Positions 49,716-64,000 of a stretch of DNA of 64,000 bases are shown here, one piece after another. The position numbers and the translations under genes are program-made. The notes below the pieces were generated by a model. It ran no database searches and was not told the origin of the DNA. It was given only the letters and a program-made list of their open reading frames with translations. Source of the stretch: Patescibacteria group bacterium (GTDB lineage: Bacteria > Patescibacteriota > Minisyncoccia > UBA6257 > UBA9933); the NCBI GenBank assembly GCA_038065035.1, contig JBBTRV010000004.1, positions 51,798 to 115,797 on the forward strand, given 5' to 3'. Numbering within the stretch: position 1 is the stretch's first letter; the number at the start of each line of letters is the position of its first letter.

Positions 49716-50314
49716 TGCTTGCCCTCCTGTATCTCTTTTAGCTTTTCTTCAATCAGCTTTATAAAATCATTTGTCAGATTTTTTGCGAAATTGTGAATAC
49801 CTTGCGTATGTAGTATCCGAATTTTCGCAGTAGTGCTAGTAATAGCTTGGGGTTCAAGAAGCGCCACTTTACCGCATAGTTTCTCTCTCTCTCTTATACC
49901 TTCCTCGCTATGTCTTGAAGTTTTTGATAAAACTAAAACATCAGGTTTTACAGTATTGATGAGATGATATTGCGGAGCGTTGTGTGGCTTTAATACAATT
50001 ACATCGACATGTCTTAGATGGGCGAGCACTGATATGCGTTCTATCTCCGGCACAACTGGACGATTTGGGCCTTTCCGCGCTCTAATTTTTTCATCACTAT
50101 CAACGCCGACTATCAAAATATCGCCCATTTTCTTGGCTTTCTCCAGATATTCGGCATGGCCGATATGGAAAATATCAAAAGCTCCGGAAGTAAGCACTAT
50201 TTTTAGTCCCATTTCCTTCCAATATTCTACAAGCATGGATAGTCTTCCGTAATCGGTAATAAATCTTTCTTTAAAACTAGTTTCATCTCCAAAAATTCCA
50301 GTATTAATTGCCAT
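49712..50314 (-). CDS. Cytidylyltransferase-like (HIGH-motif) nucleotidyltransferase
   Basis: SGAFDIFHIGHAEYLEKAKKMGDILIVGVDSDEKI resembles the TagD/RfaE-II/RibL family signature. Confidence 0.6.
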   Translation of the reverse strand: MAINTGIFGDETSFKERFITDYGRLSMLVEYWKEMGLKIVLTSGAFDIFHIGHAEYLEKAKKMGDILIVGVDSDEKIRARKGPNRPVVPEIERISVLAHLRHVDVIVLKPHNAPQYHLINTVKPDVLVLSKTSRHSEEGIREREKLCGKVALLEPQAITSTTAKIRILHTQGIHNFAKNLTNDFIKLIEEKLKEIQEGKQ

Positions 50315-50471
50315 AGCTATTCCTCCCTTTCTTTAAAAAAGTGTTAGTTTTTCTATCTTATTCTATTTATTATAATGTCCTAATTATATTCTTATATAAA
50401 AATCATCACAAAGTCAATAATATTTAGTTTATTAATTGATATAACCCCTTTTTTATTTTATAATCCAAACT

Positions 50472-51065
50472 ATGAATATTAAGCGCGATTTGGAATTTTT
50501 ATATGAAGTCGGTTCTTTCAGGTTTTTGCAAAGAACCTGGAAACAATTTTTAAATCCTGATTTTCAAAATATATCAGAGCACACCTTAAGAGTGCTCTGG
50601 ATTTCTTTAATTTTGGCAAAATATGAAGGCGTTAAAAATTGCGAAAAATTATTAAAAATGGCATTAGTTCATGATTTATCGGAAAGCAGAAGCGGAGATG
50701 TAAATTATCTGTCAAGGCAATATTGCGAAAGAATGGAAGATATGGCAATTAATGATATTTTTAAAAATACTATTTTAGAAAATGAATTTATTAAGCTTTG
50801 GCAGGAATATGAAAAAAAGAAATCTTTGGAGGCAAAAATCATCAAAGACGCCGATAATCTGGATGTTGATTTAGAATTATGCGAACAAGAAGCAAGGGGG
50901 CATAAGTTAAAGAAAATATGGTTAAAAAATCGCCAAAGGGCGGTTTATGAAAAATTATACACAACATCTGCCAAGAAATTCTGGAAAGAAATTATTAAAT
51001 CCAGTCCTCATGATTGGCATTTAAACGCCAGAAATCGCTTTAACAACGGTGACTGGAAAAAGTGA
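50472..51065 (+). CDS. HD-domain phosphohydrolase (YfbR-like 5'-deoxynucleotidase)
   Basis: HTLRV...LVHDLSESRSGD is an H...HD...D motif. Confidence 0.65.
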   Translation: MNIKRDLEFLYEVGSFRFLQRTWKQFLNPDFQNISEHTLRVLWISLILAKYEGVKNCEKLLKMALVHDLSESRSGDVNYLSRQYCERMEDMAINDIFKNTILENEFIKLWQEYEKKKSLEAKIIKDADNLDVDLELCEQEARGHKLKKIWLKNRQRAVYEKLYTTSAKKFWKEIIKSSPHDWHLNARNRFNNGDWKK

Positions 51066-51180
51066 AATTTCATTGACTTTTTTGCCTAAATCATAAATAC
51101 TAAATTAGTAAAATTGTTAATTAGTGGATTAGTTAATTAGAAATACGAACCAATTAACCAGTTGACCAGTTGACTAAACT

Positions 51181-51375
51181 ATGGGTGGCGTACCGACAAA
51201 ACATCATACCAGTTCCAAAACTCGGCGGAGGCGGTCTCATTTGGCGTTAAAATCCGCCAATCTTTTTGCTTGTTTAAATTGCCAATCGCCGATTTTGCCG
51301 CATAGATATTGCGCGAATTGCGGAAATTATAAAGGGAAGATTATTAAAGAACCAAAATTGAAAATTAAAAAATAG
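51181..51375 (+). CDS. rpmF: Ribosomal protein bL32
   Basis: Basic N-terminus KTRRRRSH and a Cys-rich CLNC...CANCG ribbon. Size 64 aa. Confidence 0.75.
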   Translation: MGGVPTKHHTSSKTRRRRSHLALKSANLFACLNCQSPILPHRYCANCGNYKGKIIKEPKLKIKK

Positions 51376-51391
51376 AATAGAATAAAAAATA

Positions 51392-51817
51392 ATGGCCACA
51401 AGGCATATCGCTAGAAGCATCGCTCTTCAATCATTATACGAATGGGATTTTCACAATAGGAAGGCGGATTTAACTCAGATAGTTGAGCGCGACATTGAAG
51501 AATTCGGCGCCGGAATTGACGAGCCGGATTTTGTCTGGCGCATTATTAAAGGCGTAACTGAGCATATTGAAGCCATTGATAAGATAATTGAAAAAGCCGC
51601 TCCCCAATGGCCGCTCAGCCAGATTTCTTTAATTGACCGGAATATTTTAAGAATCGGGCTTTATGAATTATTGTATGCTGATAAAGCTGAAATACCGGAA
51701 AAAGTGGCGATTAACGAGGCAATTGAATTGTCAAAAAATTACAGCGGCAATAATTCAAGCAAATTTGTTAATGGCGTTTTAGGGACGGTGTATAAGGAAA
51801 TAGGAATAAAAGCATGA
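51392..51817 (+). CDS. nusB: Transcription antitermination factor NusB
   Basis: [18 protein letters not shown]-terminal signature. 141 aa. Confidence 0.85.
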
Positions 51818-51882
51818 CTTATGACTTATGACCAATAACTTTTTGTTATTTGTTATAAGTTATTAGTTATTAGCTGAAAATC

Positions 51883-52578
51883 GTGGATTTATCGAGTTTA
51901 GAAAGAAAAATAGAATATCAGTTTAAAAATAAAAACCTTCTTAAAGAAGCTCTTACTCATCGTTCTTATCTTAATGAAAATCCTTCGTGGGGCAAAGATT
52001 TTTTGAGTCCTCATAACGAGCGCTTGGAATTTTTAGGCGACGCTGTGCTTGAGTTAGTAGTTACGGAAAACCTTTTTAAAAATTATTCCCGTTCTTCCGA
52101 AGGCGAATTGACAAGCATCAGGTCAGCTTTGGTTAATTATCAGATGCTGGCAGATATTTCAAGAGACATTGTTTTAAGCGACCATATATTATTATCTCGC
52201 GGAGAGGCCAAAGACACAGGCAAGGCTAGGGATGTTATTTTAGCTAATGCTTTTGAATCTCTTATCGGCGCTATTTATCTTGACGCCGGCTATGAAGGAG
52301 CGGAAAAATTCATAAATTCTTTTGTGATGAAGAGGGTGGCGGAAGTAATGGAGAAAGAGCTTTATAGAGATCCCAAAAGTTTCCTTCAGGAAATAATTCA
52401 AGAAAAAATGAAAATTACTCCGACATACGATGTTATTTCGGAGAAAGGGCCGGACCACGCGAAAATTTTCAGAGTCGGCGTTTATTTCGGCGCTCAGCTG
52501 ATTGGTGAAGGCGAGGGTTATTCAAAACAGGAAGCGGAGGTAGAAGCCGCAAAAGTGGCGTTAAAAAATGTTTCTTAA
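51883..52578 (+). CDS. rnc: Ribonuclease III
   Basis: ERLEFLGDAVLELVV catalytic signature and a C-terminal dsRBD. Confidence 0.9.
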   Translation: MDLSSLERKIEYQFKNKNLLKEALTHRSYLNENPSWGKDFLSPHNERLEFLGDAVLELVVTENLFKNYSRSSEGELTSIRSALVNYQMLADISRDIVLSDHILLSRGEAKDTGKARDVILANAFESLIGAIYLDAGYEGAEKFINSFVMKRVAEVMEKELYRDPKSFLQEIIQEKMKITPTYDVISEKGPDHAKIFRVGVYFGAQLIGEGEGYSKQEAEVEAAKVALKNVS

Positions 52579-54805
52579 ATCTTTAGAATTGAACGGTTTT
52601 AAGTCTTTCGCGCAGAAGACTGTTTTGGAATTTCCCAAGGGAATCACGGCGATTGTCGGGCCGAACGGTTCTGGCAAAAGCAATGTGATAGACGGAATCC
52701 GCTGGCTATTGGGCGAGCGCGACGCAAAAAATTTAAGAGGCAATAAAATTGAAAATCTGATTTTTGCCGGCAGTCCGCAGAAATCAAGGGCGGGATTGGC
52801 TTCAGTCGGGCTTTTTTTTGACAATAAATCCGGCTTTTTTGACAAAGATTTCAGTGAAATATTAATTACGCGTCGGGTAAGCCGCGACGGCAATTCGCAA
52901 TATTTTCTCAATAAATCCGAATGCCGGTTGAAAGATATTGTTGATTTTTTCGCCAAAGCGCGGCTTGGCACTAAGGGATTAACCATTATTAATCAAGGCA
53001 GCAGTGATTTGTTTGTTAGGGCAAATTCCGAAGAAAGGCGGCTGATGATTGAAGAAGTTTTGGGTCTTAGGGAATTTCAGATTAAAAAATTAGAAGCTAA
53101 AAGGAAATTGGAAAATACGAATATAAATCTTGAAAAAGTAAAAGCGGTAATTGAAGAAGTTGTGCCGCGCTTAAAAATGCTTCGCCGCCAGACAGCTAAA
53201 TGGGCAAAAAGAGAACAAGTGGAGCAGGAATTAAAAGAAATAGAAAACAATTATTTTTCTTTTAAGATTGGCGTAATTGACGGGGAAAACGAAAAATTTC
53301 GCGCTGAATTGAAAAATTTAGCGAGCCAAACGGCAGTTGTTAATAATGAATTAAAGATTTTAGAAAGCGAAGTTAAAAAAATTGAAGGAAAGTCGAAACG
53401 CCATGGATTAGACGATGTTAGGAGCCAGAAAAATAATTTAGCGGATAAAAGGTTTGAATTGCAGAAAGAAATCAGCCGTTTAGAAGCAAAAATGGAAATT
53501 TTCGGAAACGTAAAAGAAATTACAATTCAGGATTTTGATAGTAATGAGCTTTTGAGTTTTTTAAGCGAAGTAAGAGCCAATCTTGAAAATAGCGTAAAAA
53601 CGGAAGAATTTAAAGAACTTGCCGCGGCGGTTAAAAATCTGATTATCAGGATTGATGAGTTTTTAAACCCAAAATCAAATAAAAATATTAATCCAAATTT
53701 TAATAAATTAGAGCATCCGTTAGCTGGCAGAAAAGAGTTTGAAAATTTGAGAAATAATTTAGCGAAAGAAATCGGCGAGGTTGAGGAAAAATTGAAAATT
53801 TTTGAAAAAGAAGAAGTGGAAATAACCGCCGGCCTTGAAGATTTCAATAAAAATTTCCAAAAAGCTTTTGAGGCGTTTGAAAAGAAAAAAGACGATTTCC
53901 AATTATTGGAAAATAAAAAGCAGAAAATAAATTTTGAGCTTGAAAAATTAGATTTAAAATTAAGAGATTTAGATATTCAGGCCGGCCAAAATGGCAGGAA
54001 AATTGAAGAATTTAGATTAATCGTGAAAAATAATCAATCGGCGGAGAGTTTTATCGCAAATGAGCGAGCAGATTTGTCAGAAGCGGAAAGAAAAATGTTT
54101 CGGTTAAGGGCGGAATTGGCGAATATCGGCGAAATAGACGAATCTTTGCTTAAAGAAACGGAAAGCACGGAAAATCATTTTAATTTCCTATCGTCGCAAG
54201 TTACTGATTTGGAGCGCGCCGTGGCTGATCTGGCAATTCTTATAAAAGATTTGGAAGAAAAAATCCATTCGGACTTCAGTAATGCGTTTCAATCCATTAA
54301 TGATAATTTTGACAAGTTTTTTAAGCTGATGTTTAAGGGCGGACACGCCAAGATGAAAATTAAAAAATCAAAATTCAAAAATCAAAATGACAATTTAAAA
54401 ATTCAAAATAACAATGAAATTAATGAAATAGAAGATAAACAGGAAGAAGAAAAAGAGGAGAAAGTCGGGGTGGATATTGAATTAAGTTTGCCGAAAAAGA
54501 AAATTGGCAGCTTGGAAATGCTTTCTGGCGGGGAAAAAAGCTTGGTTTCCATTGCCGCTTTATTTGCCTTGATTTCCGTCAGTCCGCCGCCGTTTCTGGT
54601 TTTAGACGAAATTGACGCGGCATTGGATGAGAAAAACTCCGCAATGTTTGCTAATTTAATCAAAGAATTTTCCTATCAGACGCAGTTCATTATTGTCACC
54701 CATAATCGGTCAGTAATGGAATCAGCCGATATGCTTTATGGCATCACAATGGAAGAAGAGGGAGTTTCTAAAGTATTGTCGTTGAAACTTGACACCGTAA
54801 ATTAA
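52568..54805 (+). CDS. smc: Short SMC-family chromosome-condensation ATPase (745 aa, no recognisable hinge)
   Basis: N-terminus FKSF...GPNGSGKSNVIDGIRWLLGE. C-terminus LSGGEKSLVSIAALFA...LVLDEIDAALD. Coiled-coil middle. The rnc-smc gene order is conserved. Confidence 0.7.
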   Translation: MFLKSLELNGFKSFAQKTVLEFPKGITAIVGPNGSGKSNVIDGIRWLLGERDAKNLRGNKIENLIFAGSPQKSRAGLASVGLFFDNKSGFFDKDFSEILITRRVSRDGNSQYFLNKSECRLKDIVDFFAKARLGTKGLTIINQGSSDLFVRANSEERRLMIEEVLGLREFQIKKLEAKRKLENTNINLEKVKAVIEEVVPRLKMLRRQTAKWAKREQVEQELKEIENNYFSFKIGVIDGENEKFRAELKNLASQTAVVNNELKILESEVKKIEGKSKRHGLDDVRSQKNNLADKRFELQKEISRLEAKMEIFGNVKEITIQDFDSNELLSFLSEVRANLENSVKTEEFKELAAAVKNLIIRIDEFLNPKSNKNINPNFNKLEHPLAGRKEFENLRNNLAKEIGEVEEKLKIFEKEEVEITAGLEDFNKNFQKAFEAFEKKKDDFQLLENKKQKINFELEKLDLKLRDLDIQAGQNGRKIEEFRLIVKNNQSAESFIANERADLSEAERKMFRLRAELANIGEIDESLLKETESTENHFNFLSSQVTDLERAVADLAILIKDLEEKIHSDFSNAFQSINDNFDKFFKLMFKGGHAKMKIKKSKFKNQNDNLKIQNNNEINEIEDKQEEEKEEKVGVDIELSLPKKKIGSLEMLSGGEKSLVSIAALFALISVSPPPFLVLDEIDAALDEKNSAMFANLIKEFSYQTQFIIVTHNRSVMESADMLYGITMEEEGVSKVLSLKLDTVN

Positions 54806-54827
54806 AAACTATAAGCTAAAATCTATT

Positions 54828-55142
54828 ATGTTAGCCATTAAATTCAGAAGAATAGGGAAAAAAGACCAGCCGAGTTATAGAATAGTTGTTTCTGAAAAAA
54901 AGTCCAAAGTTTTTGGTAAGTTTATTGAAGACCTTGGGTGGTATGACCCGAAAAGCAAAAAATTCAATATCAACAAAGAAAGAGCGCAATATCGGCTGAA
55001 AACCGGCTGCCAGCCGACTGACACAGTTCACAATTTTCTTGTAAAAACAGGCGTAATTAAAGGGCCCAAAAGGCCAGTTCATTCAATTTCAAAAAAGCAG
55101 GAAGAAGTAAAATCACAGGAAACAGCTCAACCGACAGCTTAA
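54828..55142 (+). CDS. rpsP: Ribosomal protein bS16
   Basis: MLAIKFRRIGKKDQPSYRIVV signature. Confidence 0.9.
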   Translation: MLAIKFRRIGKKDQPSYRIVVSEKKSKVFGKFIEDLGWYDPKSKKFNINKERAQYRLKTGCQPTDTVHNFLVKTGVIKGPKRPVHSISKKQEEVKSQETAQPTA

Positions 55143-55216
55143 ATTTTTGATATTCAAAGATAGATTTATTATATAAAAGGTCGAATGAAAATCAGAATTA
55201 AAAGATTAAAATAGCT

Positions 55217-55534
55217 ATGGAAGCAAAAGACCAGAATTTTCTTGAGTTCTTGATTAAATCCATTGTTGACCATCCTGACGAGGTTAAAGTTGAAAGGAAA
55301 GTTGACGAAATGGGAGTTCTTTTGACTCTTCACGTGCATCCGACCGATATGGCTCAGATTATCGGCAGGCGCGGCGCAACGGCTCAGTCTATCCGATCGC
55401 TTTTAAAAATCGTCGGAATCAAAAATAACGCCAGAGTTAATTTGAAAATCGCCGAGCCGGAAGGTTCAATGAGAGAACAAAGAGAGCCAAGGTCATCCGT
55501 TGACCAGGCAGTAGAAGGAATCAATAATTACTAA
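55217..55534 (+). CDS. KH-domain RNA-binding protein (YlqC/UPF0109-like)
   Basis: GRRGATAQSIRSL KH GXXG loop. Canonical position after rpsP. Confidence 0.8.
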   Translation: MEAKDQNFLEFLIKSIVDHPDEVKVERKVDEMGVLLTLHVHPTDMAQIIGRRGATAQSIRSLLKIVGIKNNARVNLKIAEPEGSMREQREPRSSVDQAVEGINNY

Positions 55535-55572
55535 ACCAAAAATTACGAAGTGGGACTTCGTAAATTCGTAAA

Positions 55573-55600
55573 ATCCCCCGCATTGCGGGGGATTTTTAAT
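55573..55600 (+). terminator. Rho-independent terminator after the KH gene, preceded by a second hairpin at 55543-55563
   Basis: atcccccgc-att-gcgggggat followed by ttttaatt. Confidence 0.7.
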
Positions 55601-55732
55601 TGAAAAACAAGCGTAAATATGGTAAAAAATGAGTAATGATGAAACAAGAATCATTGCGGCAAATTGAAAAATTAGTGGAGAAATACGAGAATTTTCAGAG
55701 ATTTTATTACGTTATAATGTTATAATATAAAT

Positions 55733-57193
55733 ATGAATCCAGTCATAAAAAAAGAAAATGGAGTTGTTTTTACTCCTGAATGGGTAGTGGATTTTATGGT
55801 TAGTGAGATATTAAACAGTAAAAAAATCACAGGAAAAGAAAAAATACTTGATGCGGGTTGCGGCGAAGGAATTTTTGCGACCATCGCGGCGCAAAAATTC
55901 GCAAAATTATCAGGAAAAAAGATAGAAAAAGTCATAGAAGAAAACATTTATTTTATTGATATAACAGAAGAATATACAAGAAAAACTAAACAAAATTTAC
56001 AAAAATTATCAAAAAATAAAATTATAAAATATAATGCGATAATTGATGATTTTTGTTTTCATGATTTTGATGAAAAATTTGATTTTATAATCGGTAATCC
56101 GCCTTATGTTCGCATACAAAATTTAAATGAAAGGAAGGAACAGTTGCAAAAAAAATATATAACTGCTTCCAGCGGGTCAATTGATTTATATTTTTGTTTT
56201 TTTGAGCAAGCATTAAAATTATTAAATAAAGATGGCAAAATTGCTTTTATTACTCCAAATTCTCATTTTTATTCGGCAGCGGGAAAAAATCTGCGCAATT
56301 TATTAATGTTTCATTTGGCAAAAATAATAAATTTCGATTATTTTCAGATTTTCAAAGATGCCACTACATATACGGCGATTACATTTTTACAAAAAGAAGA
56401 TGGTGTTAGTTTTTCATACGCGGAAAATTTTAAGAATAATTTTAAAAATCTTAAATATAAAAAAATATCTATTAAAAATATGAAATCTGAAAGGTGGGAA
56501 TTTTTCGATGAAAAATATCTAGATAAAATTGTTAAACTTAATAAGGAATATTCTACGCTTCTGGAAATAGCGGACATTCATTATGGAATAGCTACGCTTA
56601 AAGACGATATTTATATTTTTTCGCCTGAAAAAGATTGTAATAATTATTTTTATTTTAGCGATTTTAAGATTGAAAAAAACATTTGTGTTCCGATTATTAA
56701 AGCATCAACATATAAAGGCGAAAATCAAAACTTTTTTTTGATTTTTCCTTATGAAAATGAAAAAATAATACCAAAAAATATTTTTCAAAAAAATTATCCT
56801 GAAACATATAGATATTTATTATATTATCGCGATATTTTGGAAATGAGAGATAAGGGCGGGGGTAAAAATTATGAGGAATTTTACGCTTTTGGCAGGAATC
56901 AAGGGTTAAAAACCAGTTTTGGTAAAAAAATCATAACTAGTACTATGAATATAGCACCGCGCTTTTACGTGGTTGAAAATAAAGAAACAAGTTTTTATGC
57001 CGGCTATTGTATTAAACCTCGAAATAATATAAATATTTATGAATTATGCGAAGCGTTGAATTCTGATTTAATGAAAGAATATATTAATTCTGTTTCAAAA
57101 AGTTATCGTGGAGGATATAAATCATATGCAAAAAGTTTTTTAAAAGATTTTGCGCATCCCCAATTTTATAAAAATCAACCAGTATTATTTTAA
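55733..57193 (+). CDS. N6-adenine (gamma-class, TaqI/Eco57I-like) DNA methyltransferase with a C-terminal target-recognition region
   Basis: GVVFTPEWVVDFMV motif. LDAGCGEGIF (motif I) before IIGNPPY (motif IV), which is the gamma-class order. Very AT-rich. Confidence 0.75.
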   Translation: MNPVIKKENGVVFTPEWVVDFMVSEILNSKKITGKEKILDAGCGEGIFATIAAQKFAKLSGKKIEKVIEENIYFIDITEEYTRKTKQNLQKLSKNKIIKYNAIIDDFCFHDFDEKFDFIIGNPPYVRIQNLNERKEQLQKKYITASSGSIDLYFCFFEQALKLLNKDGKIAFITPNSHFYSAAGKNLRNLLMFHLAKIINFDYFQIFKDATTYTAITFLQKEDGVSFSYAENFKNNFKNLKYKKISIKNMKSERWEFFDEKYLDKIVKLNKEYSTLLEIADIHYGIATLKDDIYIFSPEKDCNNYFYFSDFKIEKNICVPIIKASTYKGENQNFFLIFPYENEKIIPKNIFQKNYPETYRYLLYYRDILEMRDKGGGKNYEEFYAFGRNQGLKTSFGKKIITSTMNIAPRFYVVENKETSFYAGYCIKPRNNINIYELCEALNSDLMKEYINSVSKSYRGGYKSYAKSFLKDFAHPQFYKNQPVLF

Positions 57194-57204
57194 CTAAAAA
57201 TATT

Positions 57205-57891
57205 ATGGATAATCTGCAAAATAAATTTATGAAAGCGATTAACGCCTCTTTTGCGGCTTATAATAAGAAAGGCGGCGCAAGAAGCAATAAAAAGTTAATT
57301 CCAATTCATAAATTTTTATCAGAAATAATTTTAGAAAAGCTTAAAAATAGATATTCAATAAAATCTTTGGGAATCGGCGACGGTAAAGAAGCGACAATAG
57401 ACGGAAAATATTACCCAAAAGACCTTGATGTGGCTATATTTAAAAATAATAAAATTGTAGCGACTATCAGTTTTAAATTTATCACCTCAAATTATAAACA
57501 GAACGCAAACAATTATTTTGAAGGCCTTATGGGAGAAACTGCTAATATAAGGCGACAGAATATCGGATTTGCTCATTTTTTAGTGCTTCGCGGACATACG
57601 CCGTATTATTCAAAAAATAAAGGTAATTTGCGAGGGAAACAAAAAGGAATAGAAATTATATCTGAAAAACATCTTCAAAAATACATAAAGTTATTTAATG
57701 ATATGGATTTCCCTCATAAGCCGGATTTAATAGGAATTTGTATTTTAGATTTTGATAAAAATAAAAAAGCGAAATTTGTTAATCTAAATGATTTTGATTT
57801 TTCTGTTGAAACGAGACAATTGCTTAAAAATGAATTTTCTTTAAATAATTTTTTAGATAAATTTATACATCTTATAAATTTAAAAAGTTAA
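57205..57891 (+). CDS. Hypothetical protein, a candidate cognate restriction endonuclease or specificity component
   Basis: Position immediately 3' of the MTase. Weak PD-DxK-like LDVAIF...ISFKF. No confident fold. Confidence 0.3.
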   Translation: MDNLQNKFMKAINASFAAYNKKGGARSNKKLIPIHKFLSEIILEKLKNRYSIKSLGIGDGKEATIDGKYYPKDLDVAIFKNNKIVATISFKFITSNYKQNANNYFEGLMGETANIRRQNIGFAHFLVLRGHTPYYSKNKGNLRGKQKGIEIISEKHLQKYIKLFNDMDFPHKPDLIGICILDFDKNKKAKFVNLNDFDFSVETRQLLKNEFSLNNFLDKFIHLINLKS

Positions 57892-58030
57892 AAAATTAGA
57901 CCAAATTTTAGACCAAGAAGAATATAAAGAATTAAAATCAGAAATTGATAAAACCAATAAAGAAATAGACGAAAAAGTTTATGAATTATATGGATTGACG
58001 GAGGAGGAGGTTAAAATCATTGAAAAATAA
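57884..58030 (+). pseudogene. Start-less 48-codon fragment encoding the conserved C-terminal tail of type IIG/BREX-PglX/TaqI-like N6-MTases
   Basis: KVKKLDQILDQEEYKELKSEIDKTNKEIDEKVYELYGLTEEEVKIIEK*. It is in the +1 frame relative to the upstream ORF across an A-rich run. Confidence 0.4.
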
Positions 58031-58038
58031 TAATTAAA

Positions 58039-58878
58039 ATGGCTAAGAAAAAAGATAAAATTCAAGAAATTATAGAAAGGAGCGGCAATGACCTGCAATT
58101 TCGAATTGTAAATTATTTAGAGAGTCATAAATGGGAAGTCTCTATAAGTCCATATTATAACGATCCATCTACTGGAAAACCGAGAGAAATTGATATTGTG
58201 GCTATTCTCAAATGGTCGATAAAGGATGATTTCGGGCATTTTAAACTGGGTGAATTGGCAATTCGATTATTTGTTGAATGTAAATATATTAAAGACGATG
58301 TCATTTTTTGGTTTAGGCAGAAAAATATGTTATCAGCTATTAAATTAGCTAAAGACAATAATATTTTGTGCGATAAGCAGGATTGTTATCTTAATCAAAA
58401 TAAGGTAAGTCAACATCATTATATAGATAATGTTCAGGTAGCGAAAATAGCGGCTAAAAGCTACAATCGTGACGATATTTTTGAGGCGATGAATCAGTGC
58501 TTGAACGGACTTATCTTTTTTGGGAATAATAGTAATATTTCAACTTCATACCATATTGATTTTCCACTTATAGTGACTAATTCATTTAAAAATATTCACA
58601 AACGTGATCAAAATAACGGATACGTCCAAATTACAGAACCGTTTCAACTCGAAGTTGATTATTCGTATAAACAGACAAGAAGTGATGGAAGAATAACAGA
58701 TGTAACAAAATATTTTTTAATAGATATTATGAGTTTTGATAAACTTGATTCGTTTTTACAAGATTTAGAGAACAGGGACATTAAATTATTTCGAGACAAT
58801 TTGCAATGGGATTTAGAACGTCAGGAAAGACAAAATCGTGAACAATTGAATAATAATTCACATGATCCCTATTATTAA
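58039..58878 (+). CDS. PD-(D/E)xK-fold nuclease-like protein
   Basis: PREIDIVAIL...IRLFVECKY matches the D...ExK core with hydrophobic beta-strands. Confidence 0.5.
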   Translation: MAKKKDKIQEIIERSGNDLQFRIVNYLESHKWEVSISPYYNDPSTGKPREIDIVAILKWSIKDDFGHFKLGELAIRLFVECKYIKDDVIFWFRQKNMLSAIKLAKDNNILCDKQDCYLNQNKVSQHHYIDNVQVAKIAAKSYNRDDIFEAMNQCLNGLIFFGNNSNISTSYHIDFPLIVTNSFKNIHKRDQNNGYVQITEPFQLEVDYSYKQTRSDGRITDVTKYFLIDIMSFDKLDSFLQDLENRDIKLFRDNLQWDLERQERQNREQLNNNSHDPYY

Positions 58879-58963
58879 TAATAACTCCGCGGCGCTAATT
58901 TAGGGGTTTATACAAAAATTCGCTTCGGCGGATTTTTGATTGGAGATATGGTAAAATAAATTT

Positions 58964-59467
58964 ATGGCTTTAAGGGAAAATAATTTTGCGTATATTGATG
59001 GCGCAAATTTATATAAAGGCGTTGAGTCGTCGGCATGGAAACTTGATTATCAGAATTTCAGATCGTGGATGCGTCAAAAATTTGGCGTTACTGACGCGTA
59101 TATATTTATTGGTCTTATTTCAAAGAACGCAGATTTATACACGTCTTTACAATCCAAGGGGTATGAATTGGTATTTAAGGAAATTGTTTACGACGGGTCG
59201 GGGAAAGCAAAAGGTAATTGTGATGCAGATTTGGTGCTCCAAGCCGCAAGAGATTATTACGAAAACCATTCTATGTCCGCTTTGCTTGTTTCAAGCGATG
59301 GGGATTATGCGCCACTCGTTCGTTTCTGGCAAGAAAAGAAAGTCCCTTGCGCTATTATATCTCCTGCGCCTACTGCTAAGTGTTCAATTTTATTAAAACG
59401 GACAGGGGTGCCGATTATATATCTTGAAGACGTGAAGCATAAGTTATCGTTTAGTAATTCAAAATGA
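58964..59467 (+). CDS. NYN-domain (LabA/DUF88-like, PIN-like) putative RNase
   Basis: AYIDGANLY, CDADLV and SSDGDY conserved acidic positions. Confidence 0.65.
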   Translation: MALRENNFAYIDGANLYKGVESSAWKLDYQNFRSWMRQKFGVTDAYIFIGLISKNADLYTSLQSKGYELVFKEIVYDGSGKAKGNCDADLVLQAARDYYENHSMSALLVSSDGDYAPLVRFWQEKKVPCAIISPAPTAKCSILLKRTGVPIIYLEDVKHKLSFSNSK

Positions 59468-59470
59468 AAA

Positions 59471-59515
59471 AGCCCCCGGCACGGACGTATCCGTACAGGG
59501 GTCTTTTTCGTAGTA
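59471..59515 (+). terminator. Rho-independent terminator after the NYN gene
   Basis: cccc-ggcacggacgtatccgtaca-gggg stem followed by tctttttcg. Confidence 0.55.
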
Positions 59516-59578
59516 ATATTATAAATATACCAAGCTATTAGACAAAGTCAATAAGTTTATCCACAAGCAATTTATATT

Positions 59579-60295
59579 ATGCGTTTTAATATTATTACAA
59601 TTTTTCCTCGTATTTTCGATTCGTATTTAAACGAATCAATTTTAAAGCGGGCGCAGAAGAAAAAACTGGTTAATTTTAAAATCCATAATTTGCGTGATTT
59701 TACAAAAGATAAGCATAAAAAAGTTGACGACCGGCCGTTTGGCGGAGGGCCGGGAATGGTGATGCAAATTCAGCCGATTATCAGAGCGGTTGAATTTGCA
59801 AAGTCAAAAGCCAATCCGCCGGCTGGCGGAAAAAAATTAAAAATAGGAGTTATTTTATTTACGCCCGGGGGAAAGCAATTTGATAACAAAATAGCGGCGC
59901 AAATGGCGAAAAATTATAACCAGCTGATTTTAATCTGCGGCCGGTATGAAGGCATTGATGAAAGAGTAAAAAAAGCTATTAAAGATTTAGGATTGAAAGT
60001 GCGGGAAATTTCTATTGGCCCCTATGTTTTGACTGGCGGAGAGCTTCCGGCAATGGTTTTAATTGATTCTGTCTCCCGCCAAATTACCGGCGCGCTTGGC
60101 AATATAAAATCATTAGAAGAAAGACGGTATGGTTTGCCGGTTTACCCCCACACCAAACAAAGTTATGGTGTGGGGGTTTATACCCGGCCGGAAATATTTA
60201 TGCATAAGGGCAAAAAATATAAAACTCCGGAAGTTCTGCTTTCCGGCAATCATAAAAAAATCGATGAATGGCATAAAAATAAAATAAAAAGATAA
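59579..60295 (+). CDS. trmD: tRNA (guanine37-N1)-methyltransferase
   Basis: MRFNIITIFPRIF N-terminus and the FGGGPGMVM motif. Confidence 0.9.
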   Translation: MRFNIITIFPRIFDSYLNESILKRAQKKKLVNFKIHNLRDFTKDKHKKVDDRPFGGGPGMVMQIQPIIRAVEFAKSKANPPAGGKKLKIGVILFTPGGKQFDNKIAAQMAKNYNQLILICGRYEGIDERVKKAIKDLGLKVREISIGPYVLTGGELPAMVLIDSVSRQITGALGNIKSLEERRYGLPVYPHTKQSYGVGVYTRPEIFMHKGKKYKTPEVLLSGNHKKIDEWHKNKIKR

Positions 60296-60372
60296 ATTTG
60301 AAAACTATTGACATTTAAAATTTTTTAATATATCATTATAAACAATTATGAAGTCCCGACCCAATCGGGACT

Positions 60373-61617
60373 TTGTTTCAAAAAATCTCAGATAAAATGG
60401 ATTTAAAATCTTTAAACAGAATAATAGAGCAAATTGCCGATGAAAAAGGGCTGGACAAAGCCGCTATTTTAGAAGTGGTTGAATCCGCCATATCTGCCGC
60501 TTACCGGAAAGAATACGGCAAAAGGGGAGAAAATATCAAAGCCAAGCTTGATTTAAAAACCGGCAATATTAACTTTTGGAAAACGCGCCTTGTTGTTGAT
60601 GAAACGATGGTAATTTTAGTTTCCGAAGATAATAAGGAGCAGAGAGAAAAAATAAGAGAAAGAAATATTGAAGGCGAAGAAATACTTCCTTTTTATAGCG
60701 CTGATCGCCATATTTTAATAAATGAAGCGAAGGAGATTAAGACTGATGTTCAGTTAGGAGAAGAGCTTGAATTTCCCTTGGAAGAACATGAAGATTTCGG
60801 ACGCATTGCCGCCCAAGCCGCCAAGCAGGTGATATTGCAGAAAATAAAAGAAGCGGAAAGAGATTCAATTAGAAAAGAATATCAGACAAGAGAAGGCGAA
60901 ATTGTCAGCGGCGTTATCCAACGGATGGAACGCGGGAATGTTTATATTGATTTAGGCCGGGCTATCGGCGTGATGTTTTTTAATGAAACAATTCCCGGCG
61001 AGTTTTATAAAATCGGCGAAAGATTGAGATTTTATCTTTTAGCGGTTCAGGAAGAATCGGGAAGATTGCCGGGCTTGGTGCTTTCCCGATCGCATCCGAA
61101 GTTTGTAAGCAAATTATTTGAAATTGAAGTTCCTGAAATCCACGAAGGAACAGTAGAAATAAAAGCCATCGCCCGGGAGGCCGGCAGCCGCACAAAAATT
61201 GCCGTTGCTTCAACTGTGTCCGGAGTTGATCCTATCGGCGCCTGCGTAGGGCCGCGCGGCACGCGGGTAATGGCCGTGACTAATGAATTAGGCAATGAAA
61301 AAATTGACATTATTGAATGGTCGGAAGATCCGGATAAATTTGTTGCGGCGTCGCTTTCTCCTGCTAAAGCGAAAGGCGTGGAAATTTCGACGAAGCGCGA
61401 GGCGAAAGTTTTTATTCCCGAAGATCAGCTAAGTTTGGCGATAGGCAAGGGCGGGCAGAATGTCAGGCTGGCGGCTAAGCTTACCGGATGGAAAATAGAC
61501 GTCCGTTCGCTTTCCCGGCCGGACGAAGTTTTAAGCGAAGGGGTGGCGGCAATTGAAGAAGAAACTGCTGTTGCGGAAGAAACATCAGATGTTGAAAAAT
61601 CAAAAAAAGAAGAGTAG
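60373..61617 (+). CDS. nusA: Transcription termination/antitermination factor NusA (likely start 60397)
   Basis: N-terminal domain, S1 region GEIVSGVIQR...VYIDLG, and KH IGKGGQNVRLAAKLTGWKIDV. Confidence 0.9.
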   Translation: MFQKISDKMDLKSLNRIIEQIADEKGLDKAAILEVVESAISAAYRKEYGKRGENIKAKLDLKTGNINFWKTRLVVDETMVILVSEDNKEQREKIRERNIEGEEILPFYSADRHILINEAKEIKTDVQLGEELEFPLEEHEDFGRIAAQAAKQVILQKIKEAERDSIRKEYQTREGEIVSGVIQRMERGNVYIDLGRAIGVMFFNETIPGEFYKIGERLRFYLLAVQEESGRLPGLVLSRSHPKFVSKLFEIEVPEIHEGTVEIKAIAREAGSRTKIAVASTVSGVDPIGACVGPRGTRVMAVTNELGNEKIDIIEWSEDPDKFVAASLSPAKAKGVEISTKREAKVFIPEDQLSLAIGKGGQNVRLAAKLTGWKIDVRSLSRPDEVLSEGVAAIEEETAVAEETSDVEKSKKEE

Positions 61618-61732
61618 AATATACGGCAAACATAAAGTTATTTCTTCAACCCGCTCACGCCCCGCTTTGTGGGGCTGCGCTTCCGTTTAGGTTTCAGAAA
61701 CAACTTTATATTTGCCTTAAATAATTAATACT

Positions 61733-63709
61733 ATGCAAATTTTAATTCTTATCCCGGCATTTTTAGCGATTATCTATAGTTTTTATATTATTTATTGGCT
61801 CCGCAAACAACCGGAAGGCGACGAGTCAATGAAGGAAATTTCCAACGCCATTCGCGCCGGCGCTAATGCTTATCTTAATCGCCAGTCAAGGGCTATTGCA
61901 GTAGTCGCTGTTATTTTATCAATCATTCTTTATTTCACTTTTGGTTGGATTTCGGTTGTTGGATTTTTAATTGGCGCCATTGCTTCGGCAGTTGCCGGCT
62001 ATATCGGCATGAATATCGCGGTGCGTTCCAATTCTAAAACAACTGAAGCCGCTAAAAAAGGGTTGGCATCGGCATTGCGGCTGGCTTTTAATGCCGGCTC
62101 GGTTACCGGTTTTTTAGTGGCGGCACTGGGCTTATTAAGCGTAAGCATTTTTTATTATTTAGTTGATGATGTCCGGCCGCTGATATCATTAAGCTTCGGC
62201 GCGAGTTTGATTTCGGTTTTTGCCCGTTTGGGAGGCGGTATTTATACTAAAGCCGCTGATGTTGGGGCGGATTTGGTCGGCAAGGTAGAAGCCGGTATTC
62301 CTGAAGACGATCCTCGTAATCCGGCGGTTATCGCCGATAATGTCGGGGATAATGTCGGCGATTGCGCCGGAATGGCTGCTGACTTATTTGAAACTTATGT
62401 TGTCACTTTAACCGCGGCTTTGCTTTTAGGGTCTTTAGTAATCGGCCAAAATGGCATTGCTTTTGTTATTTCTTTGGCTTCGGTGGCTATCTTGGCTTCT
62501 ATAATCGGCAGTTTTTTCGTAAGACTTGGCAAATCAAACGGATCGGGAAAAATTATGCGCGCTCTTTATAAAGGTTTCTTGTCGTCAATTATAGTTTCCG
62601 CGATTCTTTTTTATCCTTTGACAAAATATTATTTTGCCGGAGATTATTTGAATATATTTTTCAGCGCTTTAGTTGGTTTAGTAGTAACGGTATTTATGGT
62701 TTTTATTACCGATTATTATACTGCCAAGCATTATCGGCCGGTTCAATCTATTGCCGAAGCGTCTGTTTCCGGACATGGCACTAATATTATTATGGGTTTG
62801 GCGGTTGGAATGGAAGCGACATTTTTGCCGATAATCGTGATTATTGCCGGTATTTTAATCAGTTTCTGGCTGGCCGGACTTTTTGGAATTGCGATTTCCG
62901 CGATGGCGATGCTTTCAGCCGCCGGCATGGTTGTGGCAATTGATTCTTTCGGGCCGATTACCGACAACGCCGGAGGCATTGCGGAAATGACTAATCAGCC
63001 TCAAGAAGTGCGCGAGATAACAGACAGCCTTGACGCGGTTGGCAATACTACAAAGGCGATAACTAAGGGATATGCCATTGCTTCGGCTGGCTTGGCCGCT
63101 TTGGTTTTGTTTGCCAGCTATGTTGAAGAAGTTAAATTATTTATAAGCGATATTGCTTTTGATTTGCAGGACCCCGATGTAATCGCCGGCTTGCTTTTAG
63201 GAGCGGCTATTCCATATTTATTTTCTTCAATGGCGATGCGGGCAGTCGGAAAAACTGCCGGCGCTGTGGTTGATGAAGTAAGAAGGCAGTTTCGGGAAAT
63301 CAGCGGCATTATGGAAGGTACTGCCAAGCCGGAATACGGCAAAGCAGTTGATATTGTAACTAAAGCCGCTTTGCGGCAGATGATTATTCCTTCGCTTATT
63401 CCGATAGTTTCTGTTTTAGTTGTCGGCTTTGCGCTTGGCGCGAAGTCGTTAGGAGGATTTTTAATCGGTTCTATTATTTCAGGGTTATTTATCGCCATTA
63501 AAATGACTTCCGGCGGAGCGGCTTGGGATAACGCTAAAAAGCATATTGAATCAGGAAATCATGGCGGCAAAGGTTCGGAAGCGCATAAGGCGGCAGTAAC
63601 CGGCGATACGGTCGGCGACCCATATAAAGATACTGCCGGTCCGGCGATTAATCCATTGATAAAAGTAATTAATATTGTAGCATTATTAATAGTTAGATTT
63701 TTAAAATAA
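61733..63709 (+). CDS. hppA: Membrane-bound proton-translocating pyrophosphatase
   Basis: About 15 TM helices. GDNVGDCAG and [13 protein letters not shown] signature motifs. Confidence 0.9.
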
Positions 63710-63715
63710 ATTTTA

Positions 63716-64000
63716 TGCTAATACCAACAGTAATAGAAAAATCACAATATGGCGAAAGAGCTTATGATATTTATTCAAGATTATTAAAAGATCGCATTAT
63801 TTTCCTTGGCGGGCCGATTATGGACCAGGTGGCAAATAGCATTATCGCCCAGCTTTTATTTTTAGAGCACGAAGATCCGAAAAAAGACATTATTCTTTAT
63901 ATTAATAGTCCGGGCGGAGTGGTGACTGCCGGCATGGCAATTTACGATACTATGCAGCATGTTAAGCCAGATGTTTCAACTATTTGCGTTGGCATGGCGG
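63716..64000 (+). CDS. clpP: ATP-dependent Clp protease proteolytic subunit (5' part, runs off the window)
   Basis: [25 protein letters not shown]...[18 protein letters not shown] includes the active-site Ser region. Confidence 0.85.

Follow-up and report, generated by a model that had tools for sequence, protein, structure and literature searches.

In a genome of a Patescibacteria group bacterium (assembly GCA_038065035.1, contig JBBTRV010000004.1) the core operon of rpsP, a khpA-type KH gene and trmD is interrupted between the last two genes by about 4 kb of DNA, which carry four open reading frames (ORFs) for an N6-adenine methyltransferase (MTase), a protein of 228 amino acids (aa), a 279-aa protein with a PD-(D/E)xK nuclease motif and a small NYN-domain protein. 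This raises the question whether the insert is one unusual defence system or a collection of unrelated genes. A first reading of the letters of this DNA (the original prediction) had described a defence-like island in which the 279-aa and NYN proteins could form a joint DNA- and RNA-targeting module that rides with a restriction-modification (RM) system. We analyzed the locus within a stretch of 64,000 nucleotides (the window) and conclude, with a probability of about 0.78, that the insert is a mosaic defence islet of independently acquired units and not one system. The island in the operon, its RM pair and the RM company of the two other nuclease genes were borne out, the joint module was not.

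Results and Discussion

The insert and its units

For a synteny comparison we compiled 80 loci around trmD relatives from species-representative genomes and mapped the window proteins onto them. The KH gene lies 10–250 bp upstream of trmD in about 35 Patescibacteria loci of this sample, and because the two genes abut there, the interruption seen in the original prediction is real and the 4-kb segment is an insertion relative to other Patescibacteria. Not one of these about 35 loci carries the MTase, 228-aa or 279-aa gene, and an NYN match was found in a single one, 2.4 kb downstream of trmD. Besides being absent from relatives, the segment deviates in base composition for three of its four genes. 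Measured against the 54 other ORFs of the window (mean guanine-cytosine (GC) content 0.366, standard deviation 0.039), the MTase gene (0.265, z -2.6, the lowest in the window) and the 228-aa gene (0.274, z -2.4) are the two lowest-GC ORFs of all 58, and the 279-aa gene has a GC content of 0.304 (z -1.6); the NYN gene is host-like (0.391, z +0.6), also at its third codon positions (GC3). The AT-richness ascribed to the whole insert thus applies to 55.7–58.9 kb, which is compositionally foreign, and not to the NYN gene.

The borders within the insert became visible in a blastn comparison of positions 55100-59700 with all fetched loci (numbered L001 onwards). The MTase gene and the 228-aa gene together are 81.6% identical over 2212 bp to L094-L096, where rny and ruvA flank them, and match L092/L093, where they have gyrA on one side and a Gmad2 gene on the other, with 76.7% identity over 2175 bp. 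This homology starts about 10–40 bp ahead of the MTase start codon, and its other end coincides exactly with the 228-aa stop codon. A second unit, the NYN gene, is 70–79% DNA-identical to L087, L089 and L091, including about 100 bp past its stop codon. The features of the locus are collected in Table 1; all gene coordinates between 53 and 62 kb agree with the original prediction, and the terminators that it had placed at both ends of the insert are genuine structures of hairpin and T-run according to folding energies and shuffling, with none of 200 shuffles being as stable as the hairpin behind the KH gene.

Table 1. Features of the interrupted operon, and the other genomic contexts of NYN genes with the positions of the conserved stem-loop.
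Feature	Position	Strand	Support
rpsP	54828-55142	+	Pfam PF00886 (S16)
khpA-type KH gene, left host flank	55217-55534	+	Pfam PF13083, 4e-20
Terminator-like hairpin and T-run behind KH gene	55570-55597	+	-19.8 kcal/mol, z -4.3
Type II RM cassette (short promoter region, MTase gene, putative endonuclease gene)	55691-57891	+	limits from DNA homology with other genomes
Gamma-class N6-adenine MTase, 486 aa	55733-57193	+	Eco57I 1e-27
228-aa ORF, putative restriction endonuclease cognate to MTase	57205-57891	+	Pfam: no match
MTase 3' relic, about 48 codons	57884-58028	+	tblastn, best E 6e-5
279-aa ORF, stand-alone PD-(D/E)xK nuclease (predicted)	58039-58878	+	Pfam: no match
Terminator-like hairpin after 279-aa gene	about 58913-58937		
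NYN (LabA-like) gene, predicted Mg-dependent endoribonuclease, 167 aa	58964-59467	+	PF01936 1.3e-12
Stem-loop / bidirectional terminator of NYN gene	59464-59511	+	-23.9 kcal/mol, z -4.3
NYN unit including 3' stem-loop	58977 to about 59565	+	DNA homology with foreign loci
trmD, right host flank	59579-60295	+	PF01746 (tRNA_m1G_MT), 4e-45; synteny
nusA	from 60373		name from source record's gene table
Stem-loop in L087; MmeI-like Type IIG gene surrounded by three NYN genes, PDDEXK_3 and RhuM also present	L087:6510-6543		
Stem-loop in L089; NYN behind Mrr_cat protein, ahead of obg	L089:6507-6540		
Stem-loop in L091; NYN between rpsJ and rplC, S10 operon	L091:6504-6537		
Stem-loop in L178; NYN in Wzy / glycosyltransferase cluster	L178:5503-5536		
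Stem-loop in L180; NYN beside GmrSD, C5 MTase (Dcm), PDDEXK_1	L180:5501-5534		
Stem-loop in L182; two NYN genes within Type I operon, hsdM-NYN-x-NYN-x-hsdS-x-hsdR	L182:5504-5537		
Distant NYN paralogue at KH-trmD junction	L024		

The Type II RM cassette and the MTase relic

Searches with the hidden Markov models of Pfam and PADLOC matched the MTase and the NYN protein and gave no match for the 228-aa and 279-aa proteins. The MTase was recognized by the Pfam families Eco57I (1e-27), N6_Mtase (3e-14) and weakly TaqI_C (1.6e-3) as well as by the PADLOC model MTase_II (1.4e-107), and its motif I (ILDAGCGEG) precedes NPPY (IIGNPPYV), the order of the gamma class, in full agreement with its first assignment as a gamma-class N6-adenine MTase.

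The 228-aa protein had been called unassignable. Its family comprises more than 830 matches, of which the top 120 are 74–100% identical, all annotated as 'hypothetical' and without Pfam domains, and searches of Pfam, NCBIfam, PADLOC, PDB sequences and PLSDB plasmids gave no sequence relative of the protein; among viral contigs two distant matches were obtained. It shows a Type II restriction endonuclease (REase) fold of the NgoMIV/Cfr10I/BsaWI/AgeI structural group, and residues E62, D75, S89-F-K91, E106 and E111 are invariant, a pattern that may correspond to the D...SxK...E active site of Cfr10I and NgoMIV. In all of L092-L096, representing two distinct genomic sites, the 228-aa gene comes straight after the gene for the 486-aa MTase. 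Because of the fold and this strict linkage we regard the 228-aa protein as the putative cognate REase, and the suspected Type II RM pair is supported by the MTase motifs, the REase-fold neighbour and the linkage of both genes across genomes.

Judged by its DNA homology the 2.2-kb segment of these two genes is a self-contained mobile Type II RM cassette, which would move as a block between Patescibacteria. The enzymatic activities and the specificity are predicted from the proteins: the gamma MTase would methylate adenine within a specific site, and where copies of this site are unmethylated the 228-aa endonuclease would cut them. In another Patescibacteria metagenome-assembled genome (MAG) the same cassette is located 1.4 kb upstream of rpsP-khpA at a different junction (L092:4529-9064). 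Across the whole window (1-64000) the palindromic tetranucleotides GATC (observed/expected 0.35, z -8.9), TCGA (0.44, z -6.8) and GGCC (0.53, z -6.8) are strongly under-represented, and this depletion fits RM systems of such specificity having acted on the DNA for a long time; the adenine MTase of the islet could recognize GATC or TCGA.

Behind the cassette follows the orphan C-terminal MTase tail of the original prediction, which is genuine. Its frame ends in ...VYELYGLTEEEVKIIEK, in a fuller read ...LDQEEYKELKSEIDKTNKEIDEKVYELYGLTEEEVKIIEK, and in tblastn it matched the C-termini of annotated N-6 DNA methylase, Eco57I and TaqI_C proteins with a best E of 6e-5; in PDB sequences no significant match was found. 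By these matches it is what remains of the 3' end of a different gene, for an N6 MTase of the Eco57I/TaqI_C type or a Type IIG enzyme, and its presence means that another MTase or RM gene was formerly there and has largely been lost. A possible 5' relic of the lost MTase at 55639-55722 (MKQESLRQIEKLVEKYENF..., reminiscent of Type IIG N-termini) was dropped, as plasmid tblastn and PDB phmmer gave nothing meaningful. We also considered the tail as a regular upstream partner of the 279-aa family, but 0 upstream neighbours in the non-redundant loci of that family end in ...LYGLTxEE, so the relic is a local historical trace in the window and not a habit of the family.

The 279-aa nuclease

The 279-aa protein has 109 close homologues, and a profile search of 1.84 billion cluster representatives gave 301 clusters at E<=1e-30. 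Among the matches listed all 150 of 150 clusters have a length of 198–326 aa and are matched over essentially the whole length, so the family is one of stand-alone proteins. D42, E50, D52, E80 and K82 (..PREIDIVA...FVECKY..) are invariant, and the D...(D/E)-x-K motif is placed on the core beta-sheet of a restriction-endonuclease-like fold, in line with the PD-(D/E)xK nuclease-like assignment made before; the protein is therefore predicted to be a Mg-dependent DNA endonuclease. Its C-terminal part (residues about 165–272) consists of a beta-rich domain and a long helix and received no assignment from our searches. No family was found for the protein in Pfam, PADLOC, NCBIfam or PDB sequences (the last also searched with a profile), and a scan of all 74 family members gave weak UPF0102 and XisH matches in a few of them. 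One distant viral contig was detected, and PLSDB plasmids contained no match.

We then looked at the genomic context in two look-up loci and 80 metagenome loci, 70 of which are non-redundant. The family gene typically closes a run of genes on one strand, and among the 118 genes located up to three positions upstream the most frequent Pfam families are ResIII (9), N6_N4_Mtase (6), DEAD (6) and SWI2_SNF2 (4), followed by five families with 3 genes each (N6_Mtase, HSDR_N, Methylase_S, RE_endonuc, Eco57I); on the downstream side integrases (4) and ResIII (3) are in front. Of the 27 loci whose upstream sequence extends to 3 kb or more, 12 have an RM gene within three genes upstream, which as a seed-based count is a lower bound. 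L111 has the gene flanked by genes matching Type III mod and res, and in L145 the gene directly follows a mod-like gene and is itself directly followed by an 873-aa gene that overlaps its stop. Such an embedded position has been used elsewhere to nominate defence genes (bioRxiv 10.1101/2024.01.29.577857). The MTase and 228-aa genes of the window were found in none of these loci. The family adjoins many types of RM system and not one particular MTase, in line with a Type IV-like role, with no reader fold assigned to the C-terminal part. From these neighbourhoods the protein is most likely an RM-associated accessory or back-up nuclease, and possibly it acts in a modification-dependent, Type IV manner.

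The NYN gene and its 3' stem-loop

The NYN domain was detected by Pfam with 48.9 bits against a cut-off of 24.2, and residues D12, N15, D112 and D114 are invariant, with D87 and D89 being at least 90% conserved, even in distant paralogues. The original description as a NYN/PIN-like RNase-domain protein is thus well founded, and a metal-dependent endoribonuclease is predicted. The family is large, with more than 3100 matches and 68–100% identity among the top 120; no match was found in viral contigs. Two PADLOC models were hit weakly, namely 'NYN' (1.8e-6, covering the C-terminal half of the 310-position model only) and HEC-09 (7.4e-6, residues 87-153 only).

Seven other NYN contexts were compared (Table 1), four of which are RM neighbourhoods (L087, L089, L180 and L182). 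The order in L182:1998-10501 is hsdM, NYN of 209 aa, a 152-aa protein, NYN of 166 aa (the close relative), a 179-aa protein, hsdS, a 180-aa protein and hsdR, with no Pfam match for the three small proteins of 152, 179 and 180 aa. In L087:3332-10620, NYN paralogues of 178, 168 and 192 aa are found within 8 kb. This clustering in L087 suggests that variable genome regions of Patescibacteria are places where NYN genes multiply. In a Yanofskybacteria MAG (L091:4562-8933) the gene for a 71%-identical NYN protein interrupts the S10 operon, which is otherwise universally conserved, together with a TauE-like gene and some 2 kb in which no genes are called. By its RM-embedded positions, and in a logic analogous to that of PrrC, the NYN protein is most likely, if speculatively, a latent RNase effector or toxin.

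A stem-loop (GAAAAAGCCCCC...GGGTCTTTTTC) begins at the NYN stop codon and is kept in 7 distinct contexts. It was present in 13/13 fetched loci with a close (at least 71% identical) NYN relative and in 0/169 other loci, and was not found behind paralogous NYN genes. Compensatory changes occur in 3 of its 17 pairs, and 87% of cells are paired. As this conservation exceeds what a generic terminator needs, the stem-loop could be a regulatory element or a target of the RNase. A small ORF (MKKPPARTYPYRGLFR...) overlapping the NYN stop was rejected, since L087 lacks its ATG and the stem pairs covary. On the minus strand, window positions 59518-59551 contain two overlapping sigma-70-like promoter matches (TTGACT-16-TATATT with TG, and TTGTCT-16-TATAAT), which are directed towards the NYN terminator from the side of trmD. 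L089 and L091 keep a TTGAC box at the matching relative position, and a short antisense transcript from these promoters is possible.

The junction and its surroundings

The absence of rimM beside the operon, noted before, was confirmed, and the whole window contains no convincing candidate for it. rimM is equally missing at the KH-trmD place in the other Patescibacteria examined, and RimM (PF01782 / PF24986) fills the gap only in non-Patescibacteria (L052, L054 and L062). The rimM-less junction is therefore normal for the clade, and the absence of rimM was not caused by the insertion.

Other accessory genes at the same junction are a HicA toxin gene (L008:5080-5346), a NUDIX protein gene (L013:4414-4920), a distant NYN paralogue together with an unnamed 458-aa protein (L024:5822-7998) and a 5-kb insert with YgjP-like and MBL-fold proteins and two paralogous S-adenosylmethionine-dependent MTases (L031:2972-8000). 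The KH-trmD junction thus looks like a permissive, recurrent landing site for accessory genes in Patescibacteria.

Further to the right, trmD is directly followed by nusA in the window (59579-61617). No nusA match was obtained in the downstream flank of the Patescibacteria trmD loci, and nusA was found near trmD only in L081 (labelled Pigmentiphaga), at a distance of about 7.4 kb on the downstream side. Compared to other genomes the neighbourhood on the right is thus rearranged as well. An Rfam scan of 54500-60500 gave a sub-threshold rsmX match only, which we treated as chance.

How the islet may have formed

We infer that the khpA-trmD junction collected accessory genes stepwise. First at the site would have been the gene for an MTase of the Eco57I/TaqI_C type (or for a Type IIG enzyme) with the 279-aa nuclease gene behind it, and the 2.2-kb cassette of MTase and REase genes would on its arrival probably have replaced most of the earlier MTase gene, with 48 codons left. 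The NYN unit would have arrived independently, and its host-like GC fits an older arrival or a donor of similar composition.

Several observations weigh against this mosaic of acquired defence units. The best trmD match is only 52% identical and there is no species-level empty site, so that the insertion is deduced from distant genomes. The marks of a classical integrative genomic island were looked for and not found: neither an integrase nor a transposase is among the four insert ORFs (Pfam), no tRNA gene lies within 50000-64000, and a search for target-site duplications or terminal inverted repeats at the insert ends gave AT-rich chance repeats only, none of them convincing; the arrival mechanism is thus left without marker. 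Roughly half of the 279-family loci have no RM neighbour. HEC-09, the only NYN defence candidate that has been tested, gave no protection against the phages tried (bioRxiv 10.1101/2024.01.29.577857). The remaining points concern the NYN gene, which by its host-like GC need not be recent, whose distant paralogue shares the KH-trmD junction in L024 and whose close relatives also occur in the S10 operon (L091) and before obg (L089), which makes a housekeeping role possible.

A more specific version of the mosaic is tentative: the NYN gene and its stem-loop might be a mobile, RM-linked abortive-infection RNase unit, with the stem-loop as regulatory or target element, and the 279-aa family an RM-embedded back-up DNA nuclease. 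The NYN unit would then, equally tentatively, be a widespread single-gene unit of Patescibacteria that settles in RM and core ribosomal operons and follows a PrrC-like logic with an unrelated fold.

Unlikely is the alternative in which the NYN protein has no part in defence but belongs to the rpsP-khpA-trmD operon as a resident housekeeping RNase, either for RNA processing or linked to the ribosome, so that a foreign origin is confined to the cassette and the 279-aa gene. The three NYN observations just given (composition including GC3, the paralogue in L024 and the positions between rpsJ and rplC and directly upstream of obg) speak for it, as does the very large and highly conserved family. 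However, about 35 other Patescibacteria lack the gene at the junction, its close relatives occupy varying positions in seven different contexts including the four RM neighbourhoods, and several paralogues can be present per locus (L087, L182). The window gene also has its own terminator and sits behind another one. Across the phylum NYN is 68–86% conserved versus at most 52% for trmD, and this higher conservation fits horizontal spread.

It is very unlikely that the 279-aa protein is the second subunit or nuclease of the Type II system, so that MTase, 228-aa and 279-aa proteins form one system. The original prediction had considered that both the 228-aa and the 279-aa proteins might turn out to be REase subunits of an ordinary system, which applies to the former and not to the latter: the cassette occurs at two other sites without a 279-aa homologue and its homology ends at the 228-aa stop codon, the MTase relic lies between the two genes, and the 279-aa family accompanies Type I, Type III and other systems but never the MTase of the window.

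Least probable of all is the two-gene DNA- and RNA-targeting module of 279-aa nuclease and NYN RNase, since, although both genes are neighbours on one strand with 85 bp between them, keep their nuclease-type catalytic residues intact and belong to families that are each independently found near RM genes, an NYN gene occurs in 0 of about 70 non-redundant 279-family loci (fetched flanks of up to 6–8 kb on each side) and a 279-aa homologue in 0/7 other NYN contexts, a terminator-like hairpin separates the two genes, their GC contents differ (0.304 versus 0.391) and their DNA homologies lead to different foreign loci with separate end points. An NYN gene unlinked elsewhere is what the original prediction had itself named as speaking against the module, and as the two are never together elsewhere, the module is unsupported.

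Comparison with known systems

With Type II RM systems of separate MTase and REase the cassette shares the MTase motifs, the adjacent small REase-fold protein, the tight linkage and the movement as a cassette; it differs in that its 228-aa REase is without detectable sequence relative in the libraries searched. REases of the NgoMIV/Cfr10I/BsaWI/AgeI kind, a structural group that also includes NucC, are known to serve cytosine MTases, and the partner in the window differs in being an adenine MTase.

The 279-aa nuclease can be compared to stand-alone PD-(D/E)xK nucleases of the Mrr, McrC, Hjc, UPF0102 and XisH kind (Pfam clan PDDEXK), but it has no family-level match to them, carries an extra C-terminal domain and lacks a McrBC-type partner GTPase. 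For the NYN gene the closest parallel in arrangement is given by RNases of the PrrC/RloC type, which are embedded in Type I RM operons and back up restriction by abortive infection. prrC is located within the EcoprrI Type I RM operon, and similarly the close NYN relative and a paralogue are located between hsdM and hsdS/hsdR in L182. In contrast, the NYN protein has a NYN/PIN-like fold, no ATPase domain and no sequence or domain relationship to PrrC/RloC, and in the window it neighbours a Type II and not a Type I system.

Payne et al. 2024 (bioRxiv 10.1101/2024.01.29.577857) have described candidates nominated through 'guilt-by-embedding' within RM, BREX and Hma systems, with the NYN protein HEC-09 among them. 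The 279-aa family and NYN resemble them in being beside or inside Type I and III RM operons, but HEC-09 has an extra N-terminal domain whereas the window protein is a bare 167-aa domain. Compared to defence islands, the islet is located inside a core operon and has no integrase, and none of the PADLOC models recognizes the 279-aa family. Undescribed in the libraries searched are the family of the 228-aa REase, the RM-associated 279-aa family and the NYN unit with its stem-loop.

Patescibacteria are mostly without CRISPR and are thought to lean on RM systems, and their horizontal acquisition of such systems is documented (PMC12455944). Against this background the insert is a small and ordinary defence islet built around a Type II RM cassette and no new kind of system, a locus in which small defence-type genes are stacked at a permissive junction within a core operon. 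Its value lies in the correct annotation and in candidate families for defence screens, with the 279-aa and NYN nucleases being candidates only beside a cassette that takes its place among the known Type II RM systems.

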